From the NCBI GenBank assembly GCA_031414955.1, contig JANOQV010000030.1, positions 16,296 through 80,295 of the forward strand: 64,000 nucleotides of DNA, in the 5' to 3' direction. A model generated the notes under the pieces. It had not been told where the DNA came from. It made no database searches and saw nothing but the letters and a program-made list of their open reading frames with translations. Shown piece after piece: positions 957-59,753 of the stretch (its first letter is position 1; every line of letters starts with the position of its first letter). Source of the DNA: Pedosphaera sp. GTDB taxonomy: Bacteria > Verrucomicrobiota > Verrucomicrobiia > Limisphaerales > SIBH01. A program made the translations under genes and the position numbers.

Positions 957-967
957 GCACGAATTTT

Positions 968-5300: not shown

Positions 5301-5514
5301 GCTGGATGGATCGGGCCAACAAGTCGTGCTGGACTGGACTGCGCCGGCTGCCTCCGCGAACACGGTCGAGTTCAGCGACTCGGTGACGACGGATGCGTGG
5401 CAGACTTTGACGAATTTTATCAATGGTCCAGTGACAGCACGGGTGACGGTGAAGGATGCCGTAGGCGCTCCCCTGCGCGTTTACCGCGTCCGGGTGGACG
5501 CTGGCAAACCGTGA
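2383..5514 (+). CDS. Exported beta-rich hypothetical protein (1043 aa) with DxDxDG Ca-binding-like loop and shared C-terminal domain
   Basis: ATGA overlap with the upstream stop. Hydrophobic signal peptide (KRLSILWLVLFSALGV). DLDSDGDTIFNGND motif. C-terminus VVLDW...W...RVYRVRVDAGKP. Confidence 0.8.
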   Translation: MSATLSPLAVMKRLSILWLVLFSALGVSKSSGATPVPLIFVNNNPVQPPELPPQIDATIFWNRALFVVSNDFLFPGLSVLPYSGKSVRFWTNNSVMLGLPGFDFQYVPNRVHLTQAQRLRRGANLPQPSRLFFNDGQITVSDYLSIRAVNIVNPGALIGDLRARVNLTTTNGLADLSRGAFRVGELPLPECSTGGGFFFDPQLRNIYASIGTNGSVNSNQFWAPFTLSSLGNSFTPIGSAPPPFQRIQINAIYPGAPATNRSTNLIFGLTNCGDYGSFVHVVTNLTTVGLIQVTNLNVNMVFVPTNGFTEGTTVDVGFPFGGLAAPVVQFRTPDFDVIGQKSLTNFLNFTDSGNGARIYRGRDCFFDTYQKSNTPYAPGLFHDFRFETNRLYTYSASLNQIGNTNSFYHTNLLSALVFTELGKSPAASDPTNYNGLVQIKALRLNLAQARIRGENAVDIYTSNLVDMTDSAIDSPFINFDVSTTNNTLVVSNLFRPIVNRLQATLESWTAVWTSSVTNGLSTNVVNGTNVVTPILATWNYRVLVLGACIATEQPAIMHKFTLHADNMIIRDKLAVNNALRLDGKTLHFGPGSGLSLPFNTSLAFTNLIGITRLTNEGVLNIPRAAFFGSFVDGYVQPPRRRTGRAPRPRLVTYESLVNRNTISAASFSTRANYVEIAGPQFFPALLEANNGLIEINGATVVVSNAVVRSQSDILITAGNLLATSSTLVAGTNGTVGNYIPGALVIDATNSITDGGPNAGNRWLVTSGARILRRPANGGDLMGTRLVSRASTFAKSVISWAGLNLGSSPSGFTNNLALGRLTLDGAVGTSFRFKSAGTGNAIYIDYLEMINFPTNFSLASVLSVDPDFTLYFADSNIPAGNLTNNSGGRIRWVSDFAGPQSSTNITYPNGLTYTFNSALVRSRDLDSDGDTIFNGNDCTPLAVPGFDSTQPCPPAPDVAGVSATASADLGLSISLDGSGQQVVLDWTAPAASANTVEFSDSVTTDAWQTLTNFINGPVTARVTVKDAVGAPLRVYRVRVDAGKP

Positions 5515-17096: not shown

Positions 17097-17196
17097 TCAA
17101 CTTGCGCCTAGAATTATCTGTGTGCGAGAACTTGCGCCCTCCGAACGAAGCGAACGGCGCGGAGCGGGAATTCCGGGCATTTTAGAGTTTTTGAGT

Positions 17197-25149: not shown

Positions 25150-25176
25150 CGGACAGCAGCAATTTTGCGAAGAACT

Positions 25177-37100: not shown

Positions 37101-39483
37101 TCGCAGCGGCTTCCTCGGCGGAACCTCGCTGGTGGACTGCGCCGTTGCTCCCGGCGGCACCGCCACCGCCGGAGTTGATTTCTTCGGGGCCAACACGCCC
37201 TTGACCTTCGCCGTGGGGCAGGCCCTCCAGCTTTTCCAGGTCACGCTGCTGGATGATTTCCTGGTCGAAGGGGATGAGACGATTTTCGTGAGCCTGAGCA
37301 ATCCTCTGGGCACTCTGATCGGAGCGCAGTCCAGCTCCGTCATTAACATCGTGGACAACGACACCACGGTCGGATTCTCCCAGACTAATTATGTGGTGAA
37401 CGAGAAGGTGACCAACGCCCTCATCACCATCGTGCGCAATGGCTCGCCGTTTCAGGCCATCTCCGTGCAGTTCCGCACCATCAACGGCAGCGCGAGCAAC
37501 GGACTGGATTACGTGTTCACTTCGAACAACTTGAGTTGGGCGGCCAACGACATTTCGCCGCGCCTCGTGGCGGTGCCGGTGCTTGATGATGCCCTGGCCG
37601 AGGGATCGGAATACGTTCAGCTCCAGTTGGTGAACCCGACCAATGCCCTGGCTGATCCGCTGACGGGCCTGGCCACGCTGACCATCGTGGATGATGCCGG
37701 TGCCATTGCCTTCGCCGCCACGTCCTTCAGCGTGATCGAGGGCGCGACGAACGCCTTGATCCAGCTCGTTCGCACCGGAGGCTCCAATGGCACGGTGAGC
37801 GTGGCCTGGACTGTGACTGGCGGCACGGCCACCGCCGGCTCGGATTACACCGGCACCACCGGCACGGTGGTCTTCGCCGCCGGCGAAACCACCAAGCAAA
37901 TCATCCTGCCCATCGCCGAAGATGCTCTCGTCGAAGGCATCGAGAACGTGATCCTGGCCCTGAGCAATGCCTCCAATGGCGCCCGCGTGGGCGGACCGTC
38001 GAGCGCGACCCTCTCCATTCTCGACAATGACACCGGCATCATCGTCGCGTCGGGCACGGCCCTGACCTTCGAGAGTTTGGTTCCGACCAACCGCGTGATC
38101 GAGCCGAACGAACGGGTCACGATTCAGTTCGGCCTGCGCAACGCCGGCCTGGTGGACGCCAACAATGTCTCGGCCACGATCGTTTACGCGAACGGCATCA
38201 CTCACACCAACGCCCAGACCCAAAGCTACGGCGCGCTGCTTGCGAGCGGCCACACCGTGGCCCGGCCCTTTAACTTCACCGCGCTGGGCACCAACGGCAC
38301 GCGCATCACGGCCACGCTGCTCCTCACGAACAATGGGGTGTTCCTCGGCCCGGTCTCCTTCGACTTTGTCCTTGGGAGCCAGAGTTTGAACTTCCAGAAC
38401 GCCAATGCCATCGCGCTGAACGTCCTCGGTTCGGCCACGCCTTACCCGGCCGGAATCACGGTGGCTGGCCTGGCCGGCCCGGTGAACCGTGTGACGGTGG
38501 CCCTGCACAACATCACTCATCCTTTCCCTGACGATCTCGACATCCTGCTGGTGGCTCCAAACGGCGCGCGGGTCATGCTCATGTCGGATGCCGGCGGCGG
38601 CAACGCCTTGAACAATGTCACGCTCACGTTTGATGACGCGGCTGCGCTGGCCATTCCGGACAACACCGCCATTTCCGCCGGCACTTATCGTCCGGGCAAC
38701 TATCTGATTCAGAACGATCCGTTCGCCGCGCCGGCTCCGGCTGCGCCTTACAGCAATACGCTCGCGGCCTTCAATGGGAGCGCCGCCAACGGTGTCTGGT
38801 CGCTCTACATCACGGATGATTCGGAGTTCTCGCTTGGGGCCATCGCCAACGGCTGGAGCTTGAACATTTCGACGGCGGACACGGTGGTCTCGGGCGCGGA
38901 TCTGGCCGTGGTGGTCACCGATGCGCCCGATCCAGCGACCACCGGCGGCCCGGTGACTTACACCATCGCGATCACGAATTACGGTCCGGCCACGGCCACT
39001 TCGGTGGTGCTGACGAACCTGCTGCCGTCGGCGGCGAGTCTCCCGATCGTGAGTGGGCCGGGCACGCACACGCTGAACGGCAACGTGCTCTCCAGTGTCT
39101 TGGGCAGTCTGGCCCTCGGGTCCGGCACGGTGGTAACCGTGACCATGACCGCTCCGGCGACGAACGCCTTGCTGACTTTTGATTCGACGGTGGCCTCGTC
39201 CGAGGTTGATCCCAATCCAGGCAACAACCACGTTTCGATCAAGACGACGGTGGGAGCCGCCCCGGATGTGCCGCCGTTATTTGTGGCGCGCAAGAACAGC
39301 CAGTTGGTGCTCAGTTGGCAGGATGCCTCGACCAATGTGGTGTTGAGAACCGCCGCGACCATTGGCGTGGCCGCTGACTGGTCGGGGGTGCCGAATGCCC
39401 CGGTGATCAGCAACGGCGTGAGCACCGTGACGATGCCCATGGACAGTGGGTTGAAGTTCTTCCGGTTGCAGCGAGTTCCTTAG
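25177..39483 (+). CDS. Giant exported adhesin-like protein (~4770 aa): N-terminal 'PxNDNF.NA' PPC-like domain, Calx-beta repeats, delta-60 propellers, P-domain, DUF11, shared C-terminal domain
   Basis: Signal peptide (KVFLLLIAFASSLVPRLAA-Q). PVNDNFTNA...GATAEPGEP..SVWYSW.AP..DT.GS.YDT.LAVYTG. Repeated Calx-beta and QPDGK propeller motifs. HPFPDDLDILLVAP P-domain. Ends LKFFRLQRVP. Confidence 0.85.
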   Translation: MKSIFERGSVNQRPGPIRGWACKVFLLLIAFASSLVPRLAAQQPVNDNFTNATVIAGFVGSALGITTGATAEPGEPNHWPTTLTGRSVWYSWVAPADGTVSIDTLGSAYDTILAVYTGSNVAALNLIANDDDSGFGLESQVIFFGVAGTTYNIAVDGYNYNDGLGPRNGPFRLNWASATNFVAAPTNEIQFAATNFTAAENAPGFAVIIVNYGGGAAGPVSIDYATADGTALVGTDYLRVTNTLTFQVGESNKSFTVPILDNAVQNSNKTVLLSLANPTGGAVLGALSNAVLTIQDDETLPVVSAAGVFNFSLPAYVVTENETFRAPFPGASINFPSRSPLGALVMVTRTGGASGRVLVDVGVGVAVGGVFPLTQTLAFDDQQMSATFVVDIPQVGAGIINLTLLNPRADPLEDPLTIIPTIGFPLSSIQILAVNTPTPASYSIERRTYRVDEYNPFDPFNFGLTNLLNFIDIDIINPSGLGGSVGIETRANVYGYLVQDGSDYPEAQNFIFPETPYTDGFAGITNFIDYIPFDITVNFPNGTTRRTIRLVVTNDATVEFNEDVQLRLHDPDNQHVLRNALANVTIMYDEQPAGQADREWNPEGVSFSQPPFNATPGANNTVSAVAVQADGRTVLVGDFTAVNSVSRFRVARMNVDGSLDLTFNPGSGADGFIEALVIYPPTLGTNGNKILIAGGFSAVNNVSRHGLARLNVNGSLDNSFFVGNGADGFVHTLTLQSDGKVLVSGDFTHWNDVAVPGLMRLNQDGSLDPSFNAGLAANNTIWSVAVRDTPQSIFVPRDAAGTQFEDVNVIETGSTAGTITITYDFYGIPDTIRVFYQGAMILDLTTNLAGSLTLAYGPGLATDFTIIMNQGIGLPGTAWEYKVSVLPVITARTIYLGGDFTEFNGLTRNGVVRLLDNGTVDPTFDPGLGVDGSVFAVAVQPDNKLLVGGAFHRFHTSERNSIVRLRNTGALDADYNVGTGFNDSVYCITLQPDNKALIGGLFQEFDGVRRMGLTRLFVGGSLDTSFMDTAYNQFSGLPRTFSFDPPRYVNSIALQADGNLMIGGSFTNLGGNYSIYRAIRNNYTVFTRADKTTRFNIARVLGGYTPGPGNTEFDPSAFPFTIDENGPIFYATMRRVDGRLGTAQVIATNSNVTANSPGDFFNQGVPQIWPEFAYAAPDSVGYVGVNYFAIPILEDTFQEGDETFHVGAVIPSGSITLGGEFVPLGAARGRFDASMVTIADNDFSPGEFNFNLSGYITNEGASFALITVIRTNGTAGGVSVDYLTRPGPVAAATTNADFSPVRGTLSFSSGQAVRTFQVPIVNDAVVEFDETITLVLTNATGGAKLPGGTPTSVATATLTIVDNDFLQGRLNFATSGFTNNENETVATIIVTRTGGNVGAMTVQVRTANGTATHPADYTGVTNTLSWADSDSSAKSFTIPLVLDGLVEGTETVNLFLYNPAINGALGARTNAVLGIADADNFGVLSLSQPFYEVDENGSAPVITVNRSGGIAGTATVNFATAVLTATPGVDYNNVSGTLTFLPGETSHNFVVPILDDLVPDGDKAILITLQNATNGSVGSLSNSVLTFIDNESFNLPAGSPDPSFHSVANDVVYALALQNDGRILMAGEFTLVNDVPRNRLARVKPSGVLDETFNIGPGANGSIRTLALQPDGKLLVGGLFTVINSTNRNHLARLGTDGSMDAFFNPGAGADNPVYALALQGDDKIVVGGSFATFNGFIRPGVVRLNTNGSVDLNFTPGTGVNGTVYALAVQSDGKILVGGDFTSFNGVARTNLIRLNLNGTLDNTFNPAFSINGVVSALLVQPDGKILLGGSFTNVNGTLRRGLARLLSGGGLDGSFLAGWSGADDAVFDLKQQVDGRLVVAGAFRTFNGVTRRGVTRLLADGATDPAINFGNGANAFVAALLIQPDRHIVFGGGFTEYDDQAHAHLVRIYGGSIAGSGALEFSAPLFTASESGSNAVITLRRRYGTFGEVRVEAFTQDGTAVAGTDYTGVTNTLIFPQGETRVQLVVPVTANAIPNDDRTVLLGLRNFLGADTGPQPVATLVIQDDDASLSFSGANYVVNENAVSGNATILLTRQGGTNQTLTVDVGTVAGGTATAGADYTPTTAPLSFGPGELSKLFTVPIANDTVLEGNETILLALSNPGAGVTLGLASAVLNVIDDELLNGQFLFQTNNFIGQEGEGVAQVVIVRTNGAVGIVSVRLTTSNLSALAGSDYVNTNILVTFDDGVTNKVVPIVLINNAVAEPDEAFLLTLSQPTGGATILQTNATVTIYDDEILPGFLGFQTNEFFVNETAGFATINVVRANSRRGVVSVDFSVSNGSATAGLDYTTNSGTLTFADGEDLKSFLIPIINDVEGEGNETVRLSLTNLQGTNTTLTLPTANLNIVDDDTALRFSSATYSAGETQGGTVITVLRGGIINTAATVDYLTVPGGTAAGGLDYTPVSGTLAWSAGDATPKTFLVPIIDNTSWQADRTVLLVLTNAVGLAVYVGTPSNAVLTIINDETQNPVAGPVDPTFNANFGAVGSVQSISYDSASRLYVGGDFSRFHGTAANRLVRLQTNGALDPTFNPGSGADQIVYSVTALTNGAYVAGAFTNVNGVPAGRVARLLANGSVDVTFLSTVGANGPVRAVALAAADQLVLGGEFLAYDGNPAARVARLNSNGTLDTSFIVGSGPNNTVRAVAVQPNGQVLIGGDFTSVSGFIVSHLARLNVDGSLDTTFDTGLGADGPVNALALQADGRILVGGEFVTINGVPRDRLARLNAGGSVDTSFIIGDGADDVVRAVALDLDGHVLVAGAFNTFNTHLLRGVARLNSDGSLDPAFNVGYGADAPVNALSVVNRALPPAVAVMNFNALIASNSTPYTTHTENFITFGSLVGGSFLAVSNGNLITGAELGSFSSPYEIRLAGGYSFTLQSITFSNLTAPVTITSSRGGTVAVVTSGPFFFDASFAGVSWVQLSAAGVAIVDDLVVLPGADAFASPSFALGGDFEKFNQIQRGGVVVLGSGGSATFDFDPRNIAARSVYASGIYTNSAQPGTLGKVVVGGDFTALVGVDRVNRLARLNIDGTLDSSFASGVGADGPVRALAIQPDGRTVFGGYFTTYDFLTRAYLARVNADGTLDNSFNFGAGLDNAVLALALQADGKVVVGGLFTTVYGVPRQSIARMNTNGTVDASFTVGAGADGAVRAVAVQADGKILIGGDFQTVNGLPRAHIARLNANGTVDGTFNPGLGADGPVNAIALTSTGGILIGGAFTNYHGAPAPRLVQLTSGGALDGSFNPGSGANDFVSSIVLQPNGLALVGGSFTTFNGQIRHRLVRLTTTGALDPTINFGAGANDLINTIALQNYDGKMVIGGRFTAVDGLTRVAVARLFGGTNAGGGAFQFSTLAYFVNEHGGSAVLTVHRTGGTLGAASVAFATGNGSATSPTDYTATIGTLNFAEAESVKQITVPIIDNSITNVDRTFIVTLSNPSPGSSLGSNTTASVIIQDNDSVIGFSAASYLVNENGLVARITVQRTGGAADAVAVEYATGTNGTATAGLDFTPAGGILVFPSGVRSQTFDVLITDDVFNEFHETVPLTLLNPAGPAVLGLAAATLTIVENDAGAGVITFGTNSYFASEEVGLAFVEVLRTNGHSGAVAVNFQTLTGSATPGIDFVVTNGSVSFGDGVTSAFLAVRLLDNVVQEGDETVPVRLFGPSGGATLGLNLANLTIVDNDAPGTFVFSSPLYTVSEAGAFVTVTILRTNGNQGAASVTLVTSGGTATPTADYAPVSNVLNFASGQSVGTVNIAILQDGLVEGTETVGLLLANAVGATNSLGTATIQIHDDEVAVGFSAATYDVTESTTNVTITLLRTGDTNSPFSALVNTSDGTAFAPGDYLGNSVLMSFAAGQTSRTFIVTVIDDTLAEGDEFVNLTLSNPSPGLSLGPVATARLNILDNDTVVQFSAPLYATNEATVVMLIPVIRSGFLGGTSLVDCAVAPGGTATAGVDFFGANTPLTFAVGQALQLFQVTLLDDFLVEGDETIFVSLSNPLGTLIGAQSSSVINIVDNDTTVGFSQTNYVVNEKVTNALITIVRNGSPFQAISVQFRTINGSASNGLDYVFTSNNLSWAANDISPRLVAVPVLDDALAEGSEYVQLQLVNPTNALADPLTGLATLTIVDDAGAIAFAATSFSVIEGATNALIQLVRTGGSNGTVSVAWTVTGGTATAGSDYTGTTGTVVFAAGETTKQIILPIAEDALVEGIENVILALSNASNGARVGGPSSATLSILDNDTGIIVASGTALTFESLVPTNRVIEPNERVTIQFGLRNAGLVDANNVSATIVYANGITHTNAQTQSYGALLASGHTVARPFNFTALGTNGTRITATLLLTNNGVFLGPVSFDFVLGSQSLNFQNANAIALNVLGSATPYPAGITVAGLAGPVNRVTVALHNITHPFPDDLDILLVAPNGARVMLMSDAGGGNALNNVTLTFDDAAALAIPDNTAISAGTYRPGNYLIQNDPFAAPAPAAPYSNTLAAFNGSAANGVWSLYITDDSEFSLGAIANGWSLNISTADTVVSGADLAVVVTDAPDPATTGGPVTYTIAITNYGPATATSVVLTNLLPSAASLPIVSGPGTHTLNGNVLSSVLGSLALGSGTVVTVTMTAPATNALLTFDSTVASSEVDPNPGNNHVSIKTTVGAAPDVPPLFVARKNSQLVLSWQDASTNVVLRTAATIGVAADWSGVPNAPVISNGVSTVTMPMDSGLKFFRLQRVP

Positions 39484-39588
39484 CGAATGGAATGAAGTTA
39501 GGTGGCGCGAAGAGCGCTTGAATTTATCGCCGGACGCAGGCGGGACGTTTCCGCCCGCGTTCGCGCGTTTTTTGGATGGTTAAGTGAT

Positions 39589-42500
39589 ATGAAACGCACT
39601 CTTGTTGCTGTGTCGGCCCTGTTGGCGGTCTCCGCCCTGGCGGTTCTCCCTCCCGGGAGAGCACCGCTGCCCAACCTCGATCGGCGTGCCTCGCGGGCCG
39701 CGAACCTGCCCAACGAAGTGGCGCCCGAGCAGGCGGTCGCCGTGTCGGCCTTGCGCTCCCGCGTGCCGGGCCTGAAGGTCACGCGCAGCGTGGTGCTGGG
39801 ATCGCCGGTCTTTTTCTCCTCGACCGACGCGCTGCTCACCGGGCCGGACGCGCAGGGTCTGGGCGTGCTGCCGGCCACGGCCCAAGGCATCCCATCCAAC
39901 GATCCGCATCGCGCGGTCAAAGCCTTTCTCAACGAACACGCCGGATTGATCGGATACAACGCCAGTGCCCTGACGGGTGCCCGCGTGAGCCGCGACTACG
40001 TGGCCACGCACAACGGGATGCGGACCGTGGTCTGGCAGCAGGAGTTGAACGGGCTGCCGGTCTTCGAGGCCATCACCATGGGGCACATCACTTCCCAGGG
40101 CGAACTGGTGAACCTCTATTCGCATTTTCTGCCCGACGCCAGCACGGCGGCGGCGCGCGGTTTGAAGGGGCGGGCTACGGTCGCGGCGGCGGCGGGTGCG
40201 GTTCAAATCTCGGTGCTGACGGCCATGTCCGTTGCGGCCGGCAATCTCGGGGATGTGGTTGCTCCTGGATCGTTGACCAGCCTCGGCGCGGCCCAGGGTC
40301 CGGCGCTCAAGCAGACGTTTCGTGGCTCGGGCGCGCTCAATGGCGACCAATACGGCGAACTGGTCTGGCTGCCTATGAACTCCGGCCTGGCCCGGCTCTG
40401 CTGGCAGGTCATCATCACCAGCAAGGCGCGCGGTGAAATGTTCCTGCTCCTGGTCGATGCCGAGACCGGCGAGGTTTTGCTGCGGCGCAATCTGACCAGT
40501 TACATCACCAACTCGACCTACAACGTGTGGACCAGCGACAGCCCTTCTCCCTTCTCGCCCGGTTATCCCACGCCCGGAAATCCGGCCCAGCCGGCGGTCA
40601 TCGCCCGGACTCTCGTGACCATCCCGGCTTTGAACACCAACGCCTCGCCGCTCGGCTGGATCGCCGAGACCGTGAACGAGACGCTGGGCAACAACGTCGA
40701 TGCGCACACCGACCACAACGACAACAACCAAGCCGACCTCCCGCGGCCGACGGGCAATCCGTTCCACGTTTTTGATTTTCCGATCGATTTGGCCAAGTCG
40801 CCGACCAATTACAGCACGGGCGCGGTGGTGCAGCTCTTCTACTGGAACAATTTCGTGCATGACAAATTGTGGGAGATGGGTTTCACCGAGGCGGCGGGCA
40901 ATTTTCAGACGACGAATTTTGGGCGTGGTGGCCTGGGCAATGATGCGGTGCAGGCCGATGCCCAGGATGGTGGAACCCTGAACGACGGGTTTCATGTCAA
41001 CAACGCCAACATGTTCACGCCGCCCGACGGTTTTCCGGCGCGGATGCAAATGTATCTGTTCGATGGCACGGATCCCGACCGGGATGGCGATTTCGACGCG
41101 GAGATCATCATCCACGAATACATGCATGGCCTGAGCAATCGCCGGGTTGGAGGCGGCATCGGGATTAGCACCCTGCAAGCGGCGGGCATGGGGGAAGGGT
41201 GGGGGGATTTTTACGGCTTGAGCATGCTCAGTGAATCCAACGACCCCATCAACGGCGAATGGGCCATGGGCGGTTATGCCACACTCAATTTTGCCGGCCT
41301 CAACCTGACGGATAATTACTACTTCGGCATCCGCCATTTTCCGTACTCCACGAATCTTTTGAAGAACCCGTTCACCTTCAAGGACATCGACCCGACTCAG
41401 ATCAGTCCTCATGCTGGGATTCCCCGCAGTCCGCTGTACCTTCCGTACACTCCCTTCGAGGCCGATGAGGTTCACCATCAGGGCGAAGTGTGGTGCGTAA
41501 CCTTGTTCGAGATGCGGGCCAATCTCATTGCGAAGTACGGCTTCGCGGGCAACCGGGTCGCGCTCCAACTCGTGACCGATGCCATGGCCTTGTGCCCGCC
41601 CAACCCTAACTTCCTCCAATCGCGCGATGCCATTCTGCAGGCCGACGTGGTCAACAACACCAACGCCAATTACGCCGAGATTTGGAAAGCATTTGCCAAG
41701 CGTGGCATGGGGAGCAGCGCGACCTCGCCGAACAGCACGACCACCGTGGGCGTCCATGAGTCCTTTGACTTCCCGGGCCTGGCGGTTACGACGGTCGCGG
41801 TGAATGACGTCTTCTCCGGCAATGGCAACGGGGCCATCGATTTCAATGAATGCGTCGAGATTTCGGTGGGGTTGCGCAATAACTCCGTCACCACGGCCCG
41901 CTCGGTGTCCGGCACCCTGCGGACTACGACTCCGGGGGTGACCATCGCCCAGTCCAACGCCGTCTATGCGGATCTGGCGCCGGGTGCCTCGGGGTTGAAC
42001 CTCACGCCTTACCGTGTTTATACCGATCCGACCTTTGTTTGCGGCACCCCTATTCAGTTCGCGCTCGTGGCTTCGGCCATCACCACCACGCAGTCCGTGA
42101 CCACGAATTTGTTTCAGTTGCGCAGTGGCTTCGTGAGCCTCAACCCCACGTTGATCAACAACAGCACGCCGGCCAGCATCCCGGACGGCAGCACCAACGG
42201 GGTGGAGTCGTTGATCAATGTTTCTGGTCTCGCGGCCGCCGTGGGCAAGATCACAGTTTCTCTCCATCTTACCCACACCTACGCCAGCGACCTTCTCCTC
42301 CAGTTGATCGGCCCGGATGGCACCACGGTGGACCTCTCCCAAAATCAAGGCGGGGCCGGGCAGAATTTTGGGGCGAGCTGCAGCCCGACGACCTTGCGCA
42401 CCACTTTTGATGACAACGCGCCCCAGGCGCTGAGTTCCGCAGTCGCACCCTTCATCGGCACGTTCCGTCCGGATGAAACTTTGACCGCCTTCGCGGGTAA

Positions 42501-45500
42501 ATCCGGCGCGGCTTTGAACGGCACCTGGCGTCTGCGGATCGTGGACGGCTTCCCGCAGGATGCCGGGACGTTGCAGTGCTGGACCTTGGCGCTTTATCCC
42601 ACGCTCTGCACCAATGGCGGAGGCACCTGCGTTTCCGACGTGGCGCTGAACGCCACCGCCGCGCCCGACCCGGCTGTGGCGGGCTTTGATCTGACCTATC
42701 AACTTGCCGTGACCAACAGCCGCCCGATCCCGGCCTCCGCTGTGGTGCTCACCCATGTCCTTTCCTCGAACGCCACCTTCGTTTCCGCCCTCTCCAGCCA
42801 GGCGGCTTGTGCGTTCAACAACGGCACCGTGACATGCGTGTTCGGCACCTTGCCGGTTGGGGCCAATGCCAGTGCCACCATCGTGATCCGGCCGCTCGCC
42901 GTGGGCCTCATCAGCAGCGTCTTCTCCGCTGGCTCCTCCACGCCGGACTCCAACCTTTCCAACAATGTCGTCACGCTGAACTCGGTCGTAATCGGGCCGG
43001 CTCCGGCCTTTGCTGCCGCCGGCGCGCAGGTCGTCGCCGAGAGCATCGCGCCGCCAACCGGTGGCATTGAGGCCGGAGAGACGGTGTCCGTGAACCTGGG
43101 CCTGCGTAACGTCGGGCCGATTGCCTCGGGGAACCTCGTGGCCACTCTCATCGAGGGCAACGGAGTAATCGCTCCTGGTGCCGCCCAGAGTTACGGCGCG
43201 ATTGCTTCGGGCGGCGTGGGGACGCAGTTGTTTTCCTTCTCGGCTCCGGGCGCGCCCGGCACCTCCATCGACGCCGTGTTGCAACTTCAGGATGGGGTGC
43301 AAAACCTGGGTGTTGTTACCTTCCACTTCACCGTCGGTGGCGAGGTCACGTTCGAGAACAACGCCCCCATCGTGATCAACCAGTTTGGGGCCTCGACGCC
43401 GTATCCGTCCGTGATCAACGCCGGCGGCGTGGTCGGCTCGCTGGCCGGGGTGCGGGCCACGTTCACCAAGCTCACCCACAGCTTTCCCGATGACATCGAC
43501 GCTTTGCTGGTCAGCCCGCAGGGGCAGAGGCTACTGCTCATGTCAGACGCGGGAGGCAACGTCGCGATCACCAACCGTACGCTTACTTTCGACGATGCGG
43601 CGGCCGGCCCGTTGCCCAACGAGACGGGCCTGGTGGCGGGCAGCTTCCGTCCCTCAAATTTCGATTCCGGCACCGAGCCGGGCGGAGACATCTTTCCCGC
43701 GCCCGCGCCCGTCGGTTCACTCATCACTTCCCTGGCGGGCTTTGCCGGCAGCGATCCGAACGGGCCTTGGTCGCTGTTCATTCACGACGATGGCGGTGGG
43801 GATGCCGGCTCGGTTTCCGGTGGTTGGTCGCTGACTTTGAACACGGTTTATCCGGTCAATCCCTTGGCCGATCTCGCCGTGACGGCCGTGGCGGTTCCCG
43901 CTGCGCCCATCCTTGATGAGCCGCTCACCCTGATCCTGACTGTGACCAATCTTGGCCCTAGCAATGCGCCTTCCGTGGTCCTGACCGACGTTCTCCCGGC
44001 CGGCAGTTCCTTCGTGAACGGTTCCGCCAGCCAAGGCGGGGGAGTGAGTTTCGCTGCTGGAGTCGTGACGGCGAATCTTGGCTCGATGAACGTCGGCTCC
44101 AGCGCCACGGTCACGATTCAATTGACACCCACAGCCCTCGGCCTGGCCGTCAACAGCGCCACCGTCTCGGGTGCTTTGACTGATCTGGTGCCCGTCAACA
44201 ACACCGCTATCACGGCGCTCACGGTGGGCAGTCCCGTGGGTGATGTGTCGCTGTCGGTCGTCGCTTCGGCCCAGCCGGTGTTCCTCTCCAGCAATGTCGT
44301 CTTCACCGTGCTCATCACCAATCGCGGTCCGAACCACGCCGCCCATGTGCAGGCCGGCACTTTCATGGCCTCCGTGCTGAGCGTGGTCTCCGCTGTCACG
44401 ACGCAGGGTGGATGTGTTTTCGCCAGTGGCCAGGCGCTCTGCGACCTCGGCGATCTTCCGGCCAACGGCAGCGCGGTCGTGACCATTACCGCCGTGGCTT
44501 CGTCCATCGGTTCGGCCCCGGCCAATTTCGCCGTGAGTTCCGACCCGACCGACCCCGTGCCGGCCAACAACTCGACCAACCTGCTTTGCACGGTCATTCC
44601 GACCTCGCCGGTGATTGTTCCGGCTGGCTCCGCGCTGCTCAACGAAGCCCTTCCGGCCAACGGCTCCATTGAATCAGGCGAGACCGTGACCTTGAGCTTC
44701 GGCCTGCGTAACGTCGGCAACGCCGACGCCGCGGACCTCATCGCCACGCTCCTTCCAACCGGTGGCGTCACTGGCCCGGGCGGACCGTTCCATTTCGGTG
44801 CGCTGCTCGCGAACGGTCCCACCGTCTCGAAGCCTTACAGTTTCACCGCGGGCGGCGCTCCGGGCAGCGCGCTCACGGCCACATTCCAGTTGTCGGACAA
44901 CGGGCAAAGCCTCGGCACGGCGGTGTTCGCCTTTACCTTGAGCGCGAGTCGCTCCTTCACGAACAGCAACCTGATCATCATTCCCAACCAGGGACAGGCC
45001 ACGAATTATCCTTCAACGCTCAACGTCTCCGGCATTGCCGGCGCGGCCAGCCGGGTGACCGTGAATATCAAACAGTTGACTCACACCTTCCCCGAAGACA
45101 TCGACCTGCTCCTCGTTGGTCCCGCCGGGCAGAAAGTGCTGCTCATGTCCGACGCGGGCGCGGGCAATGCCGTCAGCGGCGTCAACCTGACTTTCGACGA
45201 CGCGGCCACGGCGCTGCCGTTTAGTTCTATTATTTCCAGTGGCACCTATCATGGGACGGATTATCCGCCTGGCGACACGTTCCCGGCTCCCGCTCCGGCT
45301 GGGCCTTACGGCACCAATCTCGCCGTGTTCAACGGGATCAATCCCAACGGCACCTGGTCGCTCTACATCTTTGATGACGCCGTCGGCGACGCGGGCCGTG
45401 TCGATGGTGGTTGGACCCTGAACATCCAGACCGCCGCTCCCATCGTCTCCGCTGCGGATGTCGCGGTGACGGCGATCGCCCCGACGGTCGTCGAATCTGG

Positions 45501-46014
45501 CACGCCTTTCAGCTACGTGCTGACGGTGGCAAATTTCGGACCGGCACCCGCCACTGGCGTCACTTTGAGTGATTCGTTGCCGGCGGGTTTCATCCTCAGT
45601 GGCGTCACGGTCAGTCAGGGCAGCTACAGCACTGGTCCTGGCACCATCACGGCAAACCTTGGAGCGCTCGCCCTTGGTGCCACCGCCACCGTCACCGTGA
45701 ATGGTGCCGCCGTCGGGCCGATCACTCTCGTGAATCTCGTCTCCGTCAGCGCGGTTCAGGCCGATCCCAATCCGGCCAACAATCTCCTCGCGCCGGCGAC
45801 GACGGTGAACGCGCTTGCCCTCACCATCCAGCGCAGCGATGGCAACGTAATCATCACCTGGCCGTTCCCGGCCCCGGGCTACGTCCTGCAATCCGCCGCC
45901 ACCATCGAGGGGCCGTTTACCAACTCGGGCCTTTCCGTCACGACGGTCAACGGTCGGAACCAGGTCGTCGCGCCCGCCACCGGATCGACCTACTACCGCC
46001 TCCAGAAACCGTAA
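39589..46014 (+). CDS. Exported M36 (fungalysin-type) metallopeptidase (~2140 aa) with FTP/PepSY-like propeptide, three P-domains, DUF11 repeats, shared C-terminal domain
   Basis: Signal peptide MKRTLVAVSALLAVSALA. Propeptide motifs WQQELNGLPVFE and LVDAETGEVL. GFTEAAGNFQ, NNANMFTPPDG..RMQMY, HEYMHGLSNR at 41113 and GMGEGWGD are M36 signatures. Ends TYYRLQKP. Confidence 0.9.
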   Translation: MKRTLVAVSALLAVSALAVLPPGRAPLPNLDRRASRAANLPNEVAPEQAVAVSALRSRVPGLKVTRSVVLGSPVFFSSTDALLTGPDAQGLGVLPATAQGIPSNDPHRAVKAFLNEHAGLIGYNASALTGARVSRDYVATHNGMRTVVWQQELNGLPVFEAITMGHITSQGELVNLYSHFLPDASTAAARGLKGRATVAAAAGAVQISVLTAMSVAAGNLGDVVAPGSLTSLGAAQGPALKQTFRGSGALNGDQYGELVWLPMNSGLARLCWQVIITSKARGEMFLLLVDAETGEVLLRRNLTSYITNSTYNVWTSDSPSPFSPGYPTPGNPAQPAVIARTLVTIPALNTNASPLGWIAETVNETLGNNVDAHTDHNDNNQADLPRPTGNPFHVFDFPIDLAKSPTNYSTGAVVQLFYWNNFVHDKLWEMGFTEAAGNFQTTNFGRGGLGNDAVQADAQDGGTLNDGFHVNNANMFTPPDGFPARMQMYLFDGTDPDRDGDFDAEIIIHEYMHGLSNRRVGGGIGISTLQAAGMGEGWGDFYGLSMLSESNDPINGEWAMGGYATLNFAGLNLTDNYYFGIRHFPYSTNLLKNPFTFKDIDPTQISPHAGIPRSPLYLPYTPFEADEVHHQGEVWCVTLFEMRANLIAKYGFAGNRVALQLVTDAMALCPPNPNFLQSRDAILQADVVNNTNANYAEIWKAFAKRGMGSSATSPNSTTTVGVHESFDFPGLAVTTVAVNDVFSGNGNGAIDFNECVEISVGLRNNSVTTARSVSGTLRTTTPGVTIAQSNAVYADLAPGASGLNLTPYRVYTDPTFVCGTPIQFALVASAITTTQSVTTNLFQLRSGFVSLNPTLINNSTPASIPDGSTNGVESLINVSGLAAAVGKITVSLHLTHTYASDLLLQLIGPDGTTVDLSQNQGGAGQNFGASCSPTTLRTTFDDNAPQALSSAVAPFIGTFRPDETLTAFAGKSGAALNGTWRLRIVDGFPQDAGTLQCWTLALYPTLCTNGGGTCVSDVALNATAAPDPAVAGFDLTYQLAVTNSRPIPASAVVLTHVLSSNATFVSALSSQAACAFNNGTVTCVFGTLPVGANASATIVIRPLAVGLISSVFSAGSSTPDSNLSNNVVTLNSVVIGPAPAFAAAGAQVVAESIAPPTGGIEAGETVSVNLGLRNVGPIASGNLVATLIEGNGVIAPGAAQSYGAIASGGVGTQLFSFSAPGAPGTSIDAVLQLQDGVQNLGVVTFHFTVGGEVTFENNAPIVINQFGASTPYPSVINAGGVVGSLAGVRATFTKLTHSFPDDIDALLVSPQGQRLLLMSDAGGNVAITNRTLTFDDAAAGPLPNETGLVAGSFRPSNFDSGTEPGGDIFPAPAPVGSLITSLAGFAGSDPNGPWSLFIHDDGGGDAGSVSGGWSLTLNTVYPVNPLADLAVTAVAVPAAPILDEPLTLILTVTNLGPSNAPSVVLTDVLPAGSSFVNGSASQGGGVSFAAGVVTANLGSMNVGSSATVTIQLTPTALGLAVNSATVSGALTDLVPVNNTAITALTVGSPVGDVSLSVVASAQPVFLSSNVVFTVLITNRGPNHAAHVQAGTFMASVLSVVSAVTTQGGCVFASGQALCDLGDLPANGSAVVTITAVASSIGSAPANFAVSSDPTDPVPANNSTNLLCTVIPTSPVIVPAGSALLNEALPANGSIESGETVTLSFGLRNVGNADAADLIATLLPTGGVTGPGGPFHFGALLANGPTVSKPYSFTAGGAPGSALTATFQLSDNGQSLGTAVFAFTLSASRSFTNSNLIIIPNQGQATNYPSTLNVSGIAGAASRVTVNIKQLTHTFPEDIDLLLVGPAGQKVLLMSDAGAGNAVSGVNLTFDDAATALPFSSIISSGTYHGTDYPPGDTFPAPAPAGPYGTNLAVFNGINPNGTWSLYIFDDAVGDAGRVDGGWTLNIQTAAPIVSAADVAVTAIAPTVVESGTPFSYVLTVANFGPAPATGVTLSDSLPAGFILSGVTVSQGSYSTGPGTITANLGALALGATATVTVNGAAVGPITLVNLVSVSAVQADPNPANNLLAPATTVNALALTIQRSDGNVIITWPFPAPGYVLQSAATIEGPFTNSGLSVTTVNGRNQVVAPATGSTYYRLQKP

Positions 46015-53619: not shown

Positions 53620-54996
53620 TCAATCCCCGTAGTTGAACGGGTCCGAGAACTTCGCATCTGTCGTCAGGCCGGTATCCGTCAGCGTCCTGAGGAAGGCGAC
53701 GAGCGCGGCTTTCTGAGCCAGGGTCAGATTGAGTCGCCGGGCGGACGGCGGCTGGCCGGGCACGGGAGGCGCGCGCAGCGGCGGCGGCAGGTTGGGGTTG
53801 AACACCACCCCCGAGTTGTAGAACTCCACCACTTCATCCAGCGTGGCGAATCGTCCGTCGTGCATGTAAGGCGCGGTCAGTTCGATGTTGCGCAGCGAGG
53901 GAGATTTGAACAGACCCTGATCCTGCGGGCGGGCGGTGATGCCGCCGACGCCCGGATCCACGTAGGGAAATTCCAGACCGTTGTTATTGATCGTCGGCGC
54001 GGTGTGGGCATCGGTGCCGTGGCAGGCGGCGCAGGTCGCGTTGCCCACCTGGCCGAGGAAAATCTGCCGGCCCAAATTCTCCTGCGTGGTGAGGTTGGTG
54101 AAACCGACCGGCACGCCGGCGTCATACTTCGAGCGCGTCGAGACCAGGGAGCGCACGAACTGCGCGAGGGCGCGCGCGATGCGGTTGGTGTCCACCGTCG
54201 TCGTGCCGAAAGCGTTGGCGAAGAGGTTGGTGTAGAACGGTTCCGCCTCCAGCCGCGCGACCAGTGCGGGCAGAGTCAGGCCCATCTCAACGGAATTTTG
54301 AATCGGTTGCAGCACTTGTTCCTCCAGTGTGGCGGCCCGCTCATCCCAGAAAAATCGGCCGCGCGCATAATAGCGAGCGTTGCCCAGGCCCATGGAGTTG
54401 CGCCCGGTCAAGCCTCCGGCGAAGCCCACGCTGAAGGCGCGCGGATCGGAGAAGCCGGCTGACTGCTGGTGGCACGAGGAGCAGGAGACAGTGCCGTTGA
54501 TCGAGAGCCGCTGGTCGTAGAAGAGCACGCGCCCGAGCGTCGCGGCGGGGTTGGTCACGACGTTGTTGGTGGGCGTGTTGTCCTGGTTGCGCACGGGAGG
54601 CGCGAGGTAATGCGGGGGCAGCGGCGGCGAATAATTGGAGAGCGGAGTGGGCAGGAGCAAAGCGTTCGTCGTGGTGCTGGGGATGTCCTGGCGGGCCGGG
54701 TCGGACAGGGAGCGATAGTAAAGGTGCGCGTTCGCACCGCTGTTCAGCGTGCGGTGAAAACGGCCATTGTGGATTTTCCACGAATCGATTTCCGTCCAGG
54801 CAGCAAGATTGGACGAGGTTTGCAGAATCCAGACGTGATTGCCCGGATCGTTGATTGTGACGCGGGACGCGGACGGGCTGGACGGAGCGATGGTCAGGGC
54901 GGCGTGGGCGGGAATCTGCGCCGGAGTGACTGAGGCGTGCAGGAGCAGGGCCGCGATGAGCGCCACGGCCGGGCGGTTGAGGTTGCTGGTCTTCAT
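53620..54996 (-). CDS. Di-haem cytochrome c peroxidase / MauG-family protein with an extra N-terminal beta domain
   Basis: Signal peptide. LGRVLFYD.RLS, CSSCH, FFWDERA..LEEQ, CAACH, FKSPSLRNI..TAPYMHDG.F.TL, LVAFL.TLT. Confidence 0.9.
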   Translation of the reverse strand: MKTSNLNRPAVALIAALLLHASVTPAQIPAHAALTIAPSSPSASRVTINDPGNHVWILQTSSNLAAWTEIDSWKIHNGRFHRTLNSGANAHLYYRSLSDPARQDIPSTTTNALLLPTPLSNYSPPLPPHYLAPPVRNQDNTPTNNVVTNPAATLGRVLFYDQRLSINGTVSCSSCHQQSAGFSDPRAFSVGFAGGLTGRNSMGLGNARYYARGRFFWDERAATLEEQVLQPIQNSVEMGLTLPALVARLEAEPFYTNLFANAFGTTTVDTNRIARALAQFVRSLVSTRSKYDAGVPVGFTNLTTQENLGRQIFLGQVGNATCAACHGTDAHTAPTINNNGLEFPYVDPGVGGITARPQDQGLFKSPSLRNIELTAPYMHDGRFATLDEVVEFYNSGVVFNPNLPPPLRAPPVPGQPPSARRLNLTLAQKAALVAFLRTLTDTGLTTDAKFSDPFNYGD

Positions 54997-55209: not shown

Positions 55210-56610
55210 ATGAAACATGGAACCGCAGTGTTGGCTTTGATCACTTCCTTCAGTGTCGGCGGCTCGCTCGCGCAGGACTGGCCGCAATGGCGCGGCCCCA
55301 ATCGCGACGCCAGCACGGCGGGCTTCGAGGCGCCGAAAACCTGGCCCAAGGAACTCACCGAGAAATGGAAAGTCACCGTCGGCGACGGCGTGGCCACGCC
55401 CGCCCTGGTCGGGGATCGGCTCTACGTCTTCTCCCGCGAGAACGGCAACGAAATCCTCCGCTGCCTGAATGCCGCCGATGGCAAGGAGCTGTGGCAGGAC
55501 AAGTATGAAGCCCTCGGCGCGACCGGGCCGGCGGCGAGTTTTAACGGCCCGCGCAGTTCGCCCGCCGTGGCGAATGGCAAAGTGGTGACGCTCGGCGTGC
55601 GCGGCATGTTGTCCTCGGTGGACGCCACCACCGGCAAAGTGCTGTGGCGCAAGGATGACTTCCGCGCCTATCCGATGTTTCATCCCTCCAGCTCTCCGAT
55701 GATCGTCGATGGTCTGGCCATGGCCCAACTCGGCGGACGCGAGAACGGCGCGCTCGTGGCCTATGACTTGAGCACCGGCGCGGAGAAATGGCGCTGGAGC
55801 GGGCCAAGTCCATCCTATGCGTCCCCGGTTCTGCTCAACGTGGGCGGGGCGAAAATGATCGTGGCGAACACCGAGGGCAAGACGGTGGCCATCCATGCGG
55901 CGGATGGCAAGCTCGCCTGGGAATCTGCGGCGGCGGAAGTAGCGGGTGGACCCGGAACCGGCGGAGGCCGTGGCGGCGGTGGCGGGCGCGATTACAAGGC
56001 GGCCACACCGCTCGTGGATGGCCAGACGATCATCATGGCCGGGCGTGGTGTCACGGCGGTGAGAATCGAGAAGGCCGGCGACAAATTTGTGGGCCGACCC
56101 GCTTGGGCGAATCCGGACAAGTCCGTGCAGTTCAACACTCCGGTGGTTAAGAACGGATTGCTCTACGGCCTCTCGGGCAACAACGATCTTTTTTGCCTGA
56201 GTTCCAAGGATGGCAAGACGGCTTGGGCCGCGCCGTTGCCGAGCGGTGTGCCCGCCACTCCTGCGCGGGCGGCGCTGGAACGACTTGAAATCGGCCCAAC
56301 CGCATTCGGGCTGCAAGCCCCTGCGGAGCCAGCAGGATCGGGACGCCCCGGTGGACCAGGTGGTGGTCGCCGAGGCGGCATGGGCGGAGGTGGAGGTGGA
56401 GGTGGCTACGGGACCATTGTCGACGCCGGCTCCGCATTACTCGCGCTGACTCCGGCCGGACAACTCGTGGTCTTCGAGCCGAGCGACAAGGAGTTCAAAC
56501 AACTCGGCAGCTACAAAGTCGGCAGTCAGACTCATTCGTACCCGGTGGCGTCCGGCCAGCGCCTGTTCATCAAGGACAAGGATTCCCTGACGCTCTGGTT
56601 GGTAAAATAA
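55210..56610 (+). CDS. Exported PQQ-like (BamB-type) beta-propeller repeat protein
   Basis: Signal peptide then DWPQWRGPNRD. Repeats DA.TGK.LW, GPRSSP, SYASP. C-terminal YPV.SG.RLFIKD. Confidence 0.88.
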   Translation: MKHGTAVLALITSFSVGGSLAQDWPQWRGPNRDASTAGFEAPKTWPKELTEKWKVTVGDGVATPALVGDRLYVFSRENGNEILRCLNAADGKELWQDKYEALGATGPAASFNGPRSSPAVANGKVVTLGVRGMLSSVDATTGKVLWRKDDFRAYPMFHPSSSPMIVDGLAMAQLGGRENGALVAYDLSTGAEKWRWSGPSPSYASPVLLNVGGAKMIVANTEGKTVAIHAADGKLAWESAAAEVAGGPGTGGGRGGGGGRDYKAATPLVDGQTIIMAGRGVTAVRIEKAGDKFVGRPAWANPDKSVQFNTPVVKNGLLYGLSGNNDLFCLSSKDGKTAWAAPLPSGVPATPARAALERLEIGPTAFGLQAPAEPAGSGRPGGPGGGRRGGMGGGGGGGGYGTIVDAGSALLALTPAGQLVVFEPSDKEFKQLGSYKVGSQTHSYPVASGQRLFIKDKDSLTLWLVK

Positions 56611-58049: not shown

Positions 58050-59753
58050 TCAGGGGCTTTTAGAGGTCGGTGGGCCGCTGGCTTTGAGCTTCTTTTCGAT
58101 TTCCTTGTTCGGCTCGATCTTCAAGGACTTGTTCCAGGCCTCGCGCGCCTGATCGGTTTGGCGAAGTTCCGAGTAAACGTCTCCCAGATGATCGTAGAGG
58201 GTGGCGTCCGGCTCCTCGTTCAGCTCGACGGCCTTGCGGATGGGCTCGAGCGCCTCCTGCGCATGACCCTGTTTGAAGAGCACCCACCCGAGACTGTCAA
58301 GATACGCCGCGTTGGTGGGATCGAGCTTCACCGCCTTCTCAATCATCGCCCGGGCCCGGACCAAATTGGTGCCGCGCTCGGCCCACATGTAGCCGAGGTA
58401 GTTGAGCGCGGAAGGAAACTCCGGCGACATGAGAAGGGATCGTTCAAAATAGCGCTCCGCCTCGGGGATTTTCCCGGCGCGCTCGTGGGCCGCGCCCAAC
58501 TCGAAGTAGAATCCGTGAGTGAGCCGGTTGGTCTCGGTGGCCTTGGCGACGATCTCGGCGGTGGTGAAATGCCCGAGCGCGTTGGTGTATTCCTTGAGCC
58601 GCATGTAGCAGAGGCCGGAGAAAAATTCGCCCACGAAACTCTGCTTGTACCGCTGGCGCGCCTTCTGGAGCGTGTCGAGCGCCTCGCGGGGCTTTTGCTG
58701 CGCGAGCTGGGTGGAGGCGATGTCGAAATAAAGCTGCTGCGTGTCCAGGCCGAGGAGCAAAGCCTTGCGGTAATTGTCCAGCGCGTCGTCAAAGCGCTTC
58801 TCCTCATAGGCGATGGCCCCGAGGAAATAGTAGGCCTGCGGATTGGTGGGGGTCTCCCGCACGAGCAGTTTCAATTGCTCGCCTGCGTCCTTGGGATTGT
58901 TGTCCCGCAGGTAAAGCTCGACCAGGGCTTCGCGCACACCGATCAGGTCGGAGTCTTCTTTCAGGATTTTGAGATAAGCTTCGGCGGCGTGCTTCGGGTC
59001 GCCCACGAACAAGAAGCCTTGGGCCAGTTTCTGGAGGGAAATCAAGTTCGTGTTCTCCATGCTGGCGGCACGCCGGAGCAATTCCTTGGCTCGTAATCGC
59101 GCCGGAGTATTGGTCGCGCGCGGCGCTTCGGCGTCGAGGGTGAGGTGGAGGTGGGCCAGGTCGATCAGGAAGGTCGCGTCGGGCTTGGGCTGGCGCGCGG
59201 CCTGTTCGATGACCTTGCGCGCCTCGTTGGTCTGGCCCAGCGCGCGTTGGAGGTGGAACAAACTTTGATACCCGGCCATCGAGGCGGGCGCGCGTTTGAT
59301 CGCGGCGCGGCTGGCTTCAAGGGCCGCGTTGGTCTGGCCCTGCTGGAGATAGGCGAGCGAGAGCCGGGCAAACATCAGCCCGGAAGCCCCCGGAGCGGCG
59401 GCGCATTTTTTGAGCGCGGCGATGGCCTTGGCGTAATCCTTCCGCTGCATGTAGCGGCGGGAAAGATCCACGGCCAAATCCTCGTGGCCCGGCTGGAGAG
59501 CCAGCGCCAATTCATATTCCGCCAGCGCGCTTTCAACCTGGTTGGCTTGGTCCAGGCTGAGTCCGGTGAGGAAATGCGCGTGCGCCTCGGCCCGCTTTTC
59601 GGATTGCTCGGGCGTCTCGACGGGGACGTTCTCCACCGCAGAGGCGTCCTTGATGGCACCCAGTCCAGGACTTTTTCGCGCCGGGACAGAGCAGCCGGTG
59701 ACGCCGAGGCACAGCGCCATCGTCGTTGACAGCCAGAGAGATCGAAACCGCAT
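58050..59753 (-). CDS. TPR-repeat lipoprotein
   Basis: ATG 59753 with lipobox-like LGVTG-C. Many TPR helices. ALNYLGY.WA and AYLDSLGWV motifs. Confidence 0.85.
   Translation of the reverse strand: MRFRSLWLSTTMALCLGVTGCSVPARKSPGLGAIKDASAVENVPVETPEQSEKRAEAHAHFLTGLSLDQANQVESALAEYELALALQPGHEDLAVDLSRRYMQRKDYAKAIAALKKCAAAPGASGLMFARLSLAYLQQGQTNAALEASRAAIKRAPASMAGYQSLFHLQRALGQTNEARKVIEQAARQPKPDATFLIDLAHLHLTLDAEAPRATNTPARLRAKELLRRAASMENTNLISLQKLAQGFLFVGDPKHAAEAYLKILKEDSDLIGVREALVELYLRDNNPKDAGEQLKLLVRETPTNPQAYYFLGAIAYEEKRFDDALDNYRKALLLGLDTQQLYFDIASTQLAQQKPREALDTLQKARQRYKQSFVGEFFSGLCYMRLKEYTNALGHFTTAEIVAKATETNRLTHGFYFELGAAHERAGKIPEAERYFERSLLMSPEFPSALNYLGYMWAERGTNLVRARAMIEKAVKLDPTNAAYLDSLGWVLFKQGHAQEALEPIRKAVELNEEPDATLYDHLGDVYSELRQTDQAREAWNKSLKIEPNKEIEKKLKASGPPTSKSP

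Follow-up and report, generated by a model that had tools for sequence, protein, structure and literature searches.

Does the frequent pairing of threonine with asparagine in the exported proteins of a verrucomicrobial genome serve as a signal that something reads? The question arises from a 64,000-nucleotide stretch of Pedosphaera sp. (order Limisphaerales; GenBank assembly GCA_031414955.1, contig JANOQV010000030.1, positions 16,296 to 80,295), hereafter the window, which encodes a TPR lipoprotein with nine Thr-Asn (TN) sites and several giant exported proteins, and for which a preliminary description had proposed a general periplasmic modification system recognizing (S/T)-N. On the evidence presented here, TN is very probably a real recognition signal for a reader in the cell envelope, and a membrane protein of family GT117 (Pfam PF11028) related to human TMEM260 is probably that reader. 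That this protein attaches a lipid-carried sugar at T-N-x-uncharged, on the Thr, is a tentative proposal to which we give slightly less than even credence.

In the TPR lipoprotein, Thr precedes 9 of the 19 Asn residues where 0.9 would be expected (binomial p = 5e-8), Thr makes up 4.6% of the mature chain, and none of the nine sites (0/9) is an N-x-S/T sequon, all as the preliminary description had counted. The lipobox cysteine, assigned by motif, is Cys21. The earlier tallies for other window proteins were equally accurate (Table 1; counts are given throughout as observed versus expected unless another comparison is named), including the surplus of TN over NT in the protein at 2383-5514, the TN-richness of the giants (weak in the last of them), the absence of TN from the 49838-51367 protein, which had been called TrpE, the two TN in the 47122-49326 protein, which had been called GlgB, and the lack of TN in the propeller of the pyrroloquinoline quinone (PQQ) type. 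The propeller is an exception in its own family, whose 22 proteins hold 70 TN versus 39.

To place these counts in a genomic context, 4585 genes were called in the source genome (6.5 Mb, 62% G+C, 95.9% complete) with a single-codon model and exported proteins were sorted out by a hydrophobicity-based signal-peptide heuristic; errors of both steps blur the contrast between exported and cytoplasmic proteins and do not create it. Among 1409 predicted exported proteins, 6548 TN were found versus 3033, and TN ranked first among the 1600 residue pairs compared at gaps of 1 to 4 (z = 64, the next pair reaching 26.5). The genome holds about 2900 TN sites in excess, and the motif occurs in 822 of the 1409 proteins. 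Other pairs in exported proteins behave differently, with observed-to-expected ratios of 0.85 for NT, 0.88 for TD and 0.70 for TQ, and SN stays near expectation (2728 versus 2570, ratio 1.03-1.06), so that the proposed (S/T)-N narrows to T-N. The enrichment is not lost upon correction for composition, the TN ratio being 1.97-2.09 after local shuffles in windows of 10-50 residues. It is equal across all length classes and present along the whole chain, and 574 exported proteins without a paralogue still contain 855 TN versus 398, which rules out an artefact of paralogues or giant proteins. It is likewise independent of the Asn codon and alike for three of the four Thr codons, the low value for ACT arising because ACT is avoided before any A; these codon controls rule out a codon-pair or DNA-level cause.

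The excess is far smaller on the cytoplasmic side of the membrane. The 2105 proteins without a signal or helix, a set that includes missed exported proteins such as the TPR lipoprotein itself, contain 1471 TN versus 1147 (1.28), and the 495 signal-less proteins with tightly coupled starts contain 266 versus 240 (1.11). Within single polypeptides, 38 membrane Ser/Thr kinases carry 8 TN versus 14.3 in their inner part and 111 versus 48.1 in their outer part. When loops of multi-pass proteins were assigned to the inside or outside by the positive-inside rule, the two groups had TN ratios of 2.08 and 1.91, an uninformative result that probably reflects parity errors, and the inside/outside comparison of histidine kinases comprises only 3 proteins. 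In these counts, the names Tat, lipobox, DUF1501, sulfatase, kinase and the like were assigned by sequence motif rather than by library scan. Two groups of exported proteins show that the signal is not general in the sense of the preliminary description. Predicted substrates of twin-arginine translocation (Tat) have no excess (12 versus 15.1 in 22 proteins, and 3 versus 14.9 in 17 DUF1501-like paralogues, the families being few and related), consistent with a reader that acts on chains before they fold. BamA is the other group: within the order (L041-L070) it is depleted in TN (37 versus 61, compared with 54 versus 56 in other orders, L005-L034), which makes the protein useless as a TN reporter; a T-N-(I/V/L)-P site found in 14 of 30 BamA sequences outside the order is T-D, T-E, T-Q or S-D in all 30 inside it, a change that may reflect avoidance of the signal or a single ancestral event.

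We next asked how far the motif extends. In the exported set, the probability that Thr precedes Asn is 0.09 when Pro follows Asn (background 0.075), 0.05-0.09 when K, R, D or E occupies position +2, and 0.20-0.24 when V, F, P, T, L or I does; in the cytoplasmic set it is flat across contexts. The motif is thus longer than two residues and reads T-N-x-uncharged, with no Pro after Asn. This rule was derived in the source genome and then tried out of sample on Limisphaerales relatives, where 185 predicted exported proteins from 80 loci, with the candidate enzyme excluded, contain 270 permissive sites versus 115, 42 non-permissive sites versus 40.5 and 100 Ser equivalents versus 98. Exclusion of Pro is weaker in the relatives (0.10 versus a background of 0.065). 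The sequon of STT3-type N-glycosylation is N-x-S/T with x other than Pro, and a canonical sequon with Thr at -1 was ruled out, as the excess is just as strong outside N-x-S/T (5329 versus 2491) as inside it (1213 versus 530), and N-x-S/T without Thr at -1 reaches only 1.11.

The excess is specific to a lineage. In pooled 20-kb samples, whose single members are underpowered and in which gene calling is poor at low G+C, 23 relatives from the order contain 269 TN versus 94 (131 versus 54 minus the richest locus), compared with 36 versus 39 in 20 genomes of the class without PF11028 and 11 versus 13 in 13 further genomes of the phylum without it; 21 genomes of the phylum with PF11028 contain 88 versus 49. 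Among entries with names, the related loci and protein matches were all of Verrucomicrobiota type; G165, G194 and G011 were not sampled further. TN ratios from DNA patterns, noisy per genome and drawn from kin that are not independent, also differ between 37 genomes with the enzyme and 20 without (p = 7e-6), with 23 of 80 genomes dropped for G+C below 54% and the weak-hit genomes G006 and G012 counted as lacking it. Giant DUF5122 proteins contain 226 TN versus 116 in the source genome and 92 versus 54 in G187, and the same giants contain 50 versus 82 (0.61) in eight enzyme-less genomes of other orders, so the fold does not explain the excess.

The TPR lipoprotein allows individual sites to be followed. 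Among its homologues, 116 of the 120 listed were long enough for use, and together they contain 774 TN versus 113. In the 41 near orthologues (64-88% identity) both residues of all nine sites are at least 95% kept, a level reached by 20 of 102 polar pairs, 3 of 14 Thr and 2 of 9 Asn outside these sites. At T141-N142 both residues are 100% conserved in this group, and in the 74 far orthologues the pair changes as a unit (30 TN, 2 with Thr only, 0 with Asn only, 42 with neither). The far orthologues as a whole are mixed, some sites switching pairwise between TN and KE or KD and others retaining Asn alone; at T480-N481, Asn is retained and Thr mostly lost, with KN in 44 of 74. Equivalents of T303-N304 are often TS, TD or AN, and this site, which lies outside the statistical rule owing to its Pro, may have a structural role. 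In the predicted structure (predicted local distance difference test (pLDDT) score 89.6), all nine sites are placed at helix starts or turns, positions that are accessible but at which capping residues are also common.

A candidate for the reader is encoded elsewhere in the genome, which has two copies of PF11028. A profile of the enzyme clade matches human TMEM260 at E = 2e-42, and the main copy, which scores above the PF11028 cut-off, has the order of a glycosyltransferase C (GT-C) domain, a palm domain and a C-terminal TPR domain. Human TMEM260 is a protein O-mannosyltransferase that moves mannose from lipid-phosphate-mannose onto Thr/Ser of IPT domains. Its named sites are T582, T676 and T761 (PMC10214176) as well as T822 and T703 (bioRxiv 10.64898/2026.03.17.711096), and in the latter source its structures (PDB 9RQL, 9RQM, 9RQN) have donor residues D52, H67, R264 and Y267, base D441, and extended chains as substrates. 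Equivalents of the four donor residues are invariant in the clade alignment, and the human R-G-D441-L-P-G corresponds to G-G-T-D-P-G in nearly all 150 representatives that cover the loop. In a fold search, the enzyme model matched the GT-C folds of ArnT, Emb, PglB and AglB, and the TMEM260 structure 9RQL itself was absent from the matches. Members of the clade are 950-1800 amino acids long, and the outer tails of 119 members below 50% identity contain 107 permissive TN versus 40.7, with no excess in the same tails of Ser-Asn (54 versus 53.7), D-S/T (93 versus 104) or N-x-S/T (179 versus 193). The gene of G003 is split over two frames of 327 and 462 amino acids (L073:1270-3542), a frameshift or assembly error.

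PF11028 occurs in 49 of 80 genomes, among them all 23 relatives of the order (G165 with the second paralogue only), 22 of 34 others and, among 22 other genomes of the class, G005, G153 and, below threshold, G012, with none in 19. Genomes with a clear TN excess possess GT117. Named proteins of the clade outside the order are from Kiritimatiellia, to which the phylum-level genomes with the enzyme presumably belong. Of the 24 genomes from the order, 22 carry the second paralogue, possibly a non-catalytic partner or substrate recruiter; the pair of enzyme and second paralogue failed on G161 as a set sufficient for the excess. STT3 (PF02516) was not found in the source genome at its 95.9% completeness, and STT3-like genes (L312-L316) in 6 of 80 genomes are unrelated to the excess. 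One of the genomes, G194, has its STT3-like gene in a 1628-amino-acid frame; its TN ratio is lower than that of any other genome in the order, and a second paralogue was not found in it. The search for a co-distributed GT-C enzyme suggested in the preliminary description thus points to a GT117 that roughly co-occurs with the excess and is not an STT3.

In 51 of the 80 loci, a gene for an extracytoplasmic function (ECF) sigma factor lies upstream of GT117; in the source genome, the gene for a small single-pass membrane protein stands between the two (Table 1). From gene order, we infer that this small protein is an anti-sigma factor; two of its relatives had no match in NCBIfam. A first count found TN in the outer tail (~65 residues) of 49 of 52 copies (87 versus 22.6), and length filtering gave 54 of 55 (96 versus 25), the copies being kin such that the numbers demonstrate conservation and not 55 trials. 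When the 55 copies are aligned, at a mean identity of 26%, TN recurs in two positions, once as W-T-N and once as a terminal T-N-x-L, and T and N are among the best-kept columns. At least one TN is present in 98% of tails versus 60% of composition-matched exported windows, and at least two in 58% versus 24%. A search with a single sequence was too insensitive to trace the protein (14 of 57, missing the copies of G162, G180 and G183). In G161, G153 and G005, which show no clear excess, a search upstream of GT117 did not reveal the sigma gene. The same was true of the phylum-level loci, most of which extend just 1.5 kb upstream; an excess is present in some of them. Immediately upstream of GT117 lies a GT2 resembling a polyprenyl-phosphate sugar synthase in G005 and G008, and a decaprenyl-phosphate phosphoribosyltransferase in G004 and G101 (together 4 of the 28 loci listed); the source genome holds a GT2 48% identical to the synthase-like neighbor of G008.

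Taken as a mechanism, these observations suggest that T-N-x-uncharged in exported proteins would receive a sugar from the TMEM260-like GT117, probably on Thr, with a polyprenyl-phosphate sugar as the donor. The TPR and palm domains of the enzyme may bind unfolded chains as they leave the Sec channel, a substrate we favor because Tat substrates, which are exported folded, have no excess. Thr is preferred as the acceptor because the TMEM260 family is O-linking and the five named human sites are all Thr. The outer tail of the putative anti-sigma factor would itself be a GT117 substrate, and tails with unmodified Thr-Asn would free the ECF sigma factor so that more enzyme is made. A more sweeping version, in which Limisphaerales and Kiritimatiellia share proteome-wide glycosylation under the code T-N-x-uncharged, carried out at ~3000 sites per genome by an enzyme of the TMEM260 type whose catalytic loop was rebuilt, perhaps as an STT3-independent N-glycosylation of the Asn amide, and balanced by an anti-sigma tail that senses its own Thr-Asn occupancy, is unlikely to hold in all its parts.

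Several observations weigh against assigning the signal to sugar transfer by GT117. Two genomes with an intact enzyme have no excess, namely G153 (12 versus 13.9 in nine 20-kb stretches) and G161, which lies within the order (12 versus 10.5, with 10 versus 18.6 in its DUF5122 giant); a third, G005, has the enzyme and a weak excess (16 versus 11.5), and G048 lacks PF11028 yet shows 33 versus 21.6 (p = 0.01). Because of G153 and G161, the enzyme is at best necessary and by itself insufficient; a system could function without enriching its own signal, but this escape weakens the co-occurrence test. The co-occurrence moreover rests on two or three lineages and any gene of that range fits it, the count in phylum genomes with PF11028 drops to ~46 versus 37 minus G023 and G032, and the GT-C candidates profiled in addition to STT3 number just two out of at least a dozen. 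The human base D441 aligns to Thr, with an Asp one place later, in a loop that is modelled unreliably (pLDDT below 50), and the activity and chemistry of GT117 are accordingly putative. O-linking enzymes usually accept Ser as well as Thr, and SN is not enriched. In the operon, the first tail site often has a non-preferred residue at +2, and six other anti-sigma-like tails, a thin control, have one TN in 3 of 6 and two in 0 of 6. Finally, Thr and Asn are favored in any case at helix starts and turns, and these are the positions of all nine sites of the TPR lipoprotein. Beside these points stand two observations on the exceptional genomes: GT117 of G153 (L184:12975-16043) itself has 5 TN versus 0.9 in a genome free of excess and may be a recent import or modify itself, and pilin-like genes encode the most TN-rich proteins of G005 (L188:15470-17579) and G048 (L196), where the system may have narrowed to pilins.

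The position of the TPR sites is also what would be expected if nothing read the pair and TN, whether as a helix-capping or turn unit favored in exported folds or through composition or codon-pair bias, had simply become fixed in the lineage; retention of Asn without Thr at T480-N481 and T235-N236 in far orthologues and conservation of T303-N304 despite its Pro point the same way. Such an origin is nonetheless very improbable and already largely refuted, since the same folds in other lineages stand at 0.61, and the excess occurs in helical, propeller, sulfatase and cytochrome folds alike and in 574 unrelated proteins, is independent of codon and stops at the membrane. Ser is an equally good helix cap and is not enriched. 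If there is a reader, it could instead be another envelope component, such as a different GT-C enzyme, a modifier that adds an acyl group, a phospho-form or a methyl group, a chaperone or a protease, with GT117 a co-inherited bystander or substrate. G153, G161 and G048 are readily accommodated in this way, and the genome encodes many other GT-C-like proteins (among them Agl23-like, three YfhO-like, TMTC-like and Wzy_C-TPR proteins and an orphan at C184:18848-20635). We nevertheless consider it unlikely, though well short of negligible, as it leaves unexplained why the protein encoded between GT117 and its sigma factor retains Thr-Asn at 26% identity. The orphan GT-C was profiled and rejected, being present in 6 excess-free genomes and not found in G007.

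A different question is whether GT117, if it is the reader, places the sugar on the Asn amide, in an N-glycosylation that reads Thr at -1 and, at +2, a residue without charge. The disappearance of the excess where Pro follows Asn mirrors N-x(not P)-S/T, neither TD (0.88), TQ (0.70) nor SN replaces TN, nearly all clade members have a Thr in place of the O-transfer base D441 and an Asp one position further on, and STT3 is missing from the source genome. Against this, the Pro rule fits any enzyme that binds extended chains, an amide-activating site was not identified in GT117, and the characterized family member is O-linking (PMC10214176; bioRxiv 10.64898/2026.03.17.711096). On balance we regard Asn linkage as rather improbable, and keep transfer to Thr by GT117 as the working proposal.

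Set beside known systems, we infer that the TN signal marks a sequon-directed protein glycosylation with its own motif. The general O-glycosylation of Bacteroidota uses D-(S/T)-(A/I/L/V/M/T) (PMC8729774, PMC10897501), and PMC12871550 describes it as the only known motif-driven bacterial O-glycosylation, with its core machinery unidentified and the metG-wzx-glycosyltransferase locus (LFG) not conserved even within Bacteroidota. Shared with that system are a short motif enriched lineage-wide in non-cytoplasmic proteins, a hydrophobic residue downstream, hundreds of substrates (here, motif-bearing proteins counted from sequence alone) and a bias limited to non-cytoplasmic parts, as in the kinases above. 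Unlike it, the present motif is T-N-x-uncharged, Ser is not a substitute, and D-S/T-hydrophobic is under-represented in exported proteins of the source genome (1764 versus 2200, 0.80). Bacteroides thetaiotaomicron, itself of the Bacteroidota, also has PF11028, the only one of 14 control genomes to do so. STT3, PglB and AglB resemble the proposed system in an Asn-centered signal, the exclusion of Pro after Asn and the restriction to exported proteins, and differ in that the source genome has no STT3, a hydroxy residue precedes the Asn and N-x-S/T is not enriched. Human TMEM260 shares the order of GT-C, palm and TPR domains and the donor-residue equivalents, and acts on extended chains during export; unlike the bacterial clade, it serves IPT domains with a long Pro/Gly signature, and the clade differs further in its G-G-T-D-P-G loop, its length and the second paralogue alongside.

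Our literature search, which did not cover subscription papers, found no report of the Thr-Asn motif or of a function for bacterial TMEM260. If the proposal is true, it would add a second bacterial lineage with abundant motif-driven modification under a new signal, provide a first function for the bacterial relatives of TMEM260, make the PF11028 family, through its B. thetaiotaomicron copy, a candidate for the enzyme, still to be identified, that initiates O-glycosylation in Bacteroidota, and offer a tag of three to four residues useful in glyco-engineering. The claim is directly testable, since it specifies the enzyme, the sensor peptide and, in Pontiella desulfatans, a host in culture.

Table 1. 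Locations of the TN-bearing proteins and sites of the window and of candidate components encoded outside it (TN counts are observed versus expected)
Feature	Location	Strand	Remarks
TPR lipoprotein	58050..59753	-	567 amino acids, ATG start, TPR repeats, nine Thr-Asn sites
T141-N142 (QTNAA)	59328..59333	-	first turn of helix in model
T175-N176 (QTNEA)	59226..59231	-	first turn of helix in model
T214-N215 (ATNTP)	59109..59114	-	long loop in model
T235-N236 (NTNLI)	59046..59051	-	loop immediately preceding helix in model
T303-N304 (PTNPQ)	58842..58847	-	loop preceding helix in model; Pro after Asn
T390-N391 (YTNAL)	58581..58586	-	first turn of helix in model; in 105/116 orthologues
T408-N409 (ETNRL)	58527..58532	-	turn between helices in model; in 100/116 orthologues
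T462-N463 (GTNLV)	58365..58370	-	loop immediately preceding helix in model
T480-N481 (PTNAA)	58311..58316	-	loop immediately preceding helix in model
Exported protein	953..2386	+	no Pfam family; 7 TN vs 2.8
Exported 1043-amino-acid protein	2383..5514	+	no Pfam or NCBIfam family; 27 TN vs 8.1; 6 NT
Giant Calx-beta/DUF5122/DUF11 protein	5649..17096	+	64 TN vs 24.8
Giant Calx-beta/DUF5122 protein	17122..25149	+	38 TN vs 18.2
Giant Calx-beta/DUF5122 protein	25165..39483	+	65 TN vs 35.9
M36 peptidase/DUF11 protein	39502..46014	+	18 TN vs 13.2 (weak)
Exported di-haem cytochrome c peroxidase	53620..54996	-	6 TN vs 3.0
Exported PQQ-type propeller	55210..56610	+	0 TN vs 0.8; counter-example, alone not significant
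Main TMEM260-like copy (PF11028, GT117)	C241:30017-33748		outside window; profile search
Small single-pass membrane protein	C241:33749-34141		130 amino acids; between GT117 and sigma gene, directly after sigma gene
Second TMEM260-like copy	C14:50536-53424 (L281)		without donor-binding residues; palm keeps S-D-D-P
Agl23-like GT-C	C198:10317-12014 (L283)		TIGR03663 above cut-off

The remainder of the window provides some minor observations. Positions 3-46014 are occupied by a one-strand series of big exported genes, comprising the two familyless proteins, the three Calx-beta/DUF5122 giants and the M36 peptidase, and the gene just ahead of the window (C30:11917-14745) resembles a secretin-like open reading frame of locus L097. 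A small protein encoded at 62192-62572 on the minus strand resembles a dimeric dUTPase/MazG-type pyrophosphatase. Across the genome, a domain with an aromatic-aromatic-Arg motif, which looks like a sorting domain, forms the end of 173 proteins, including many giants, and TN occurs at 3.85 times expectation in its last 90 residues.

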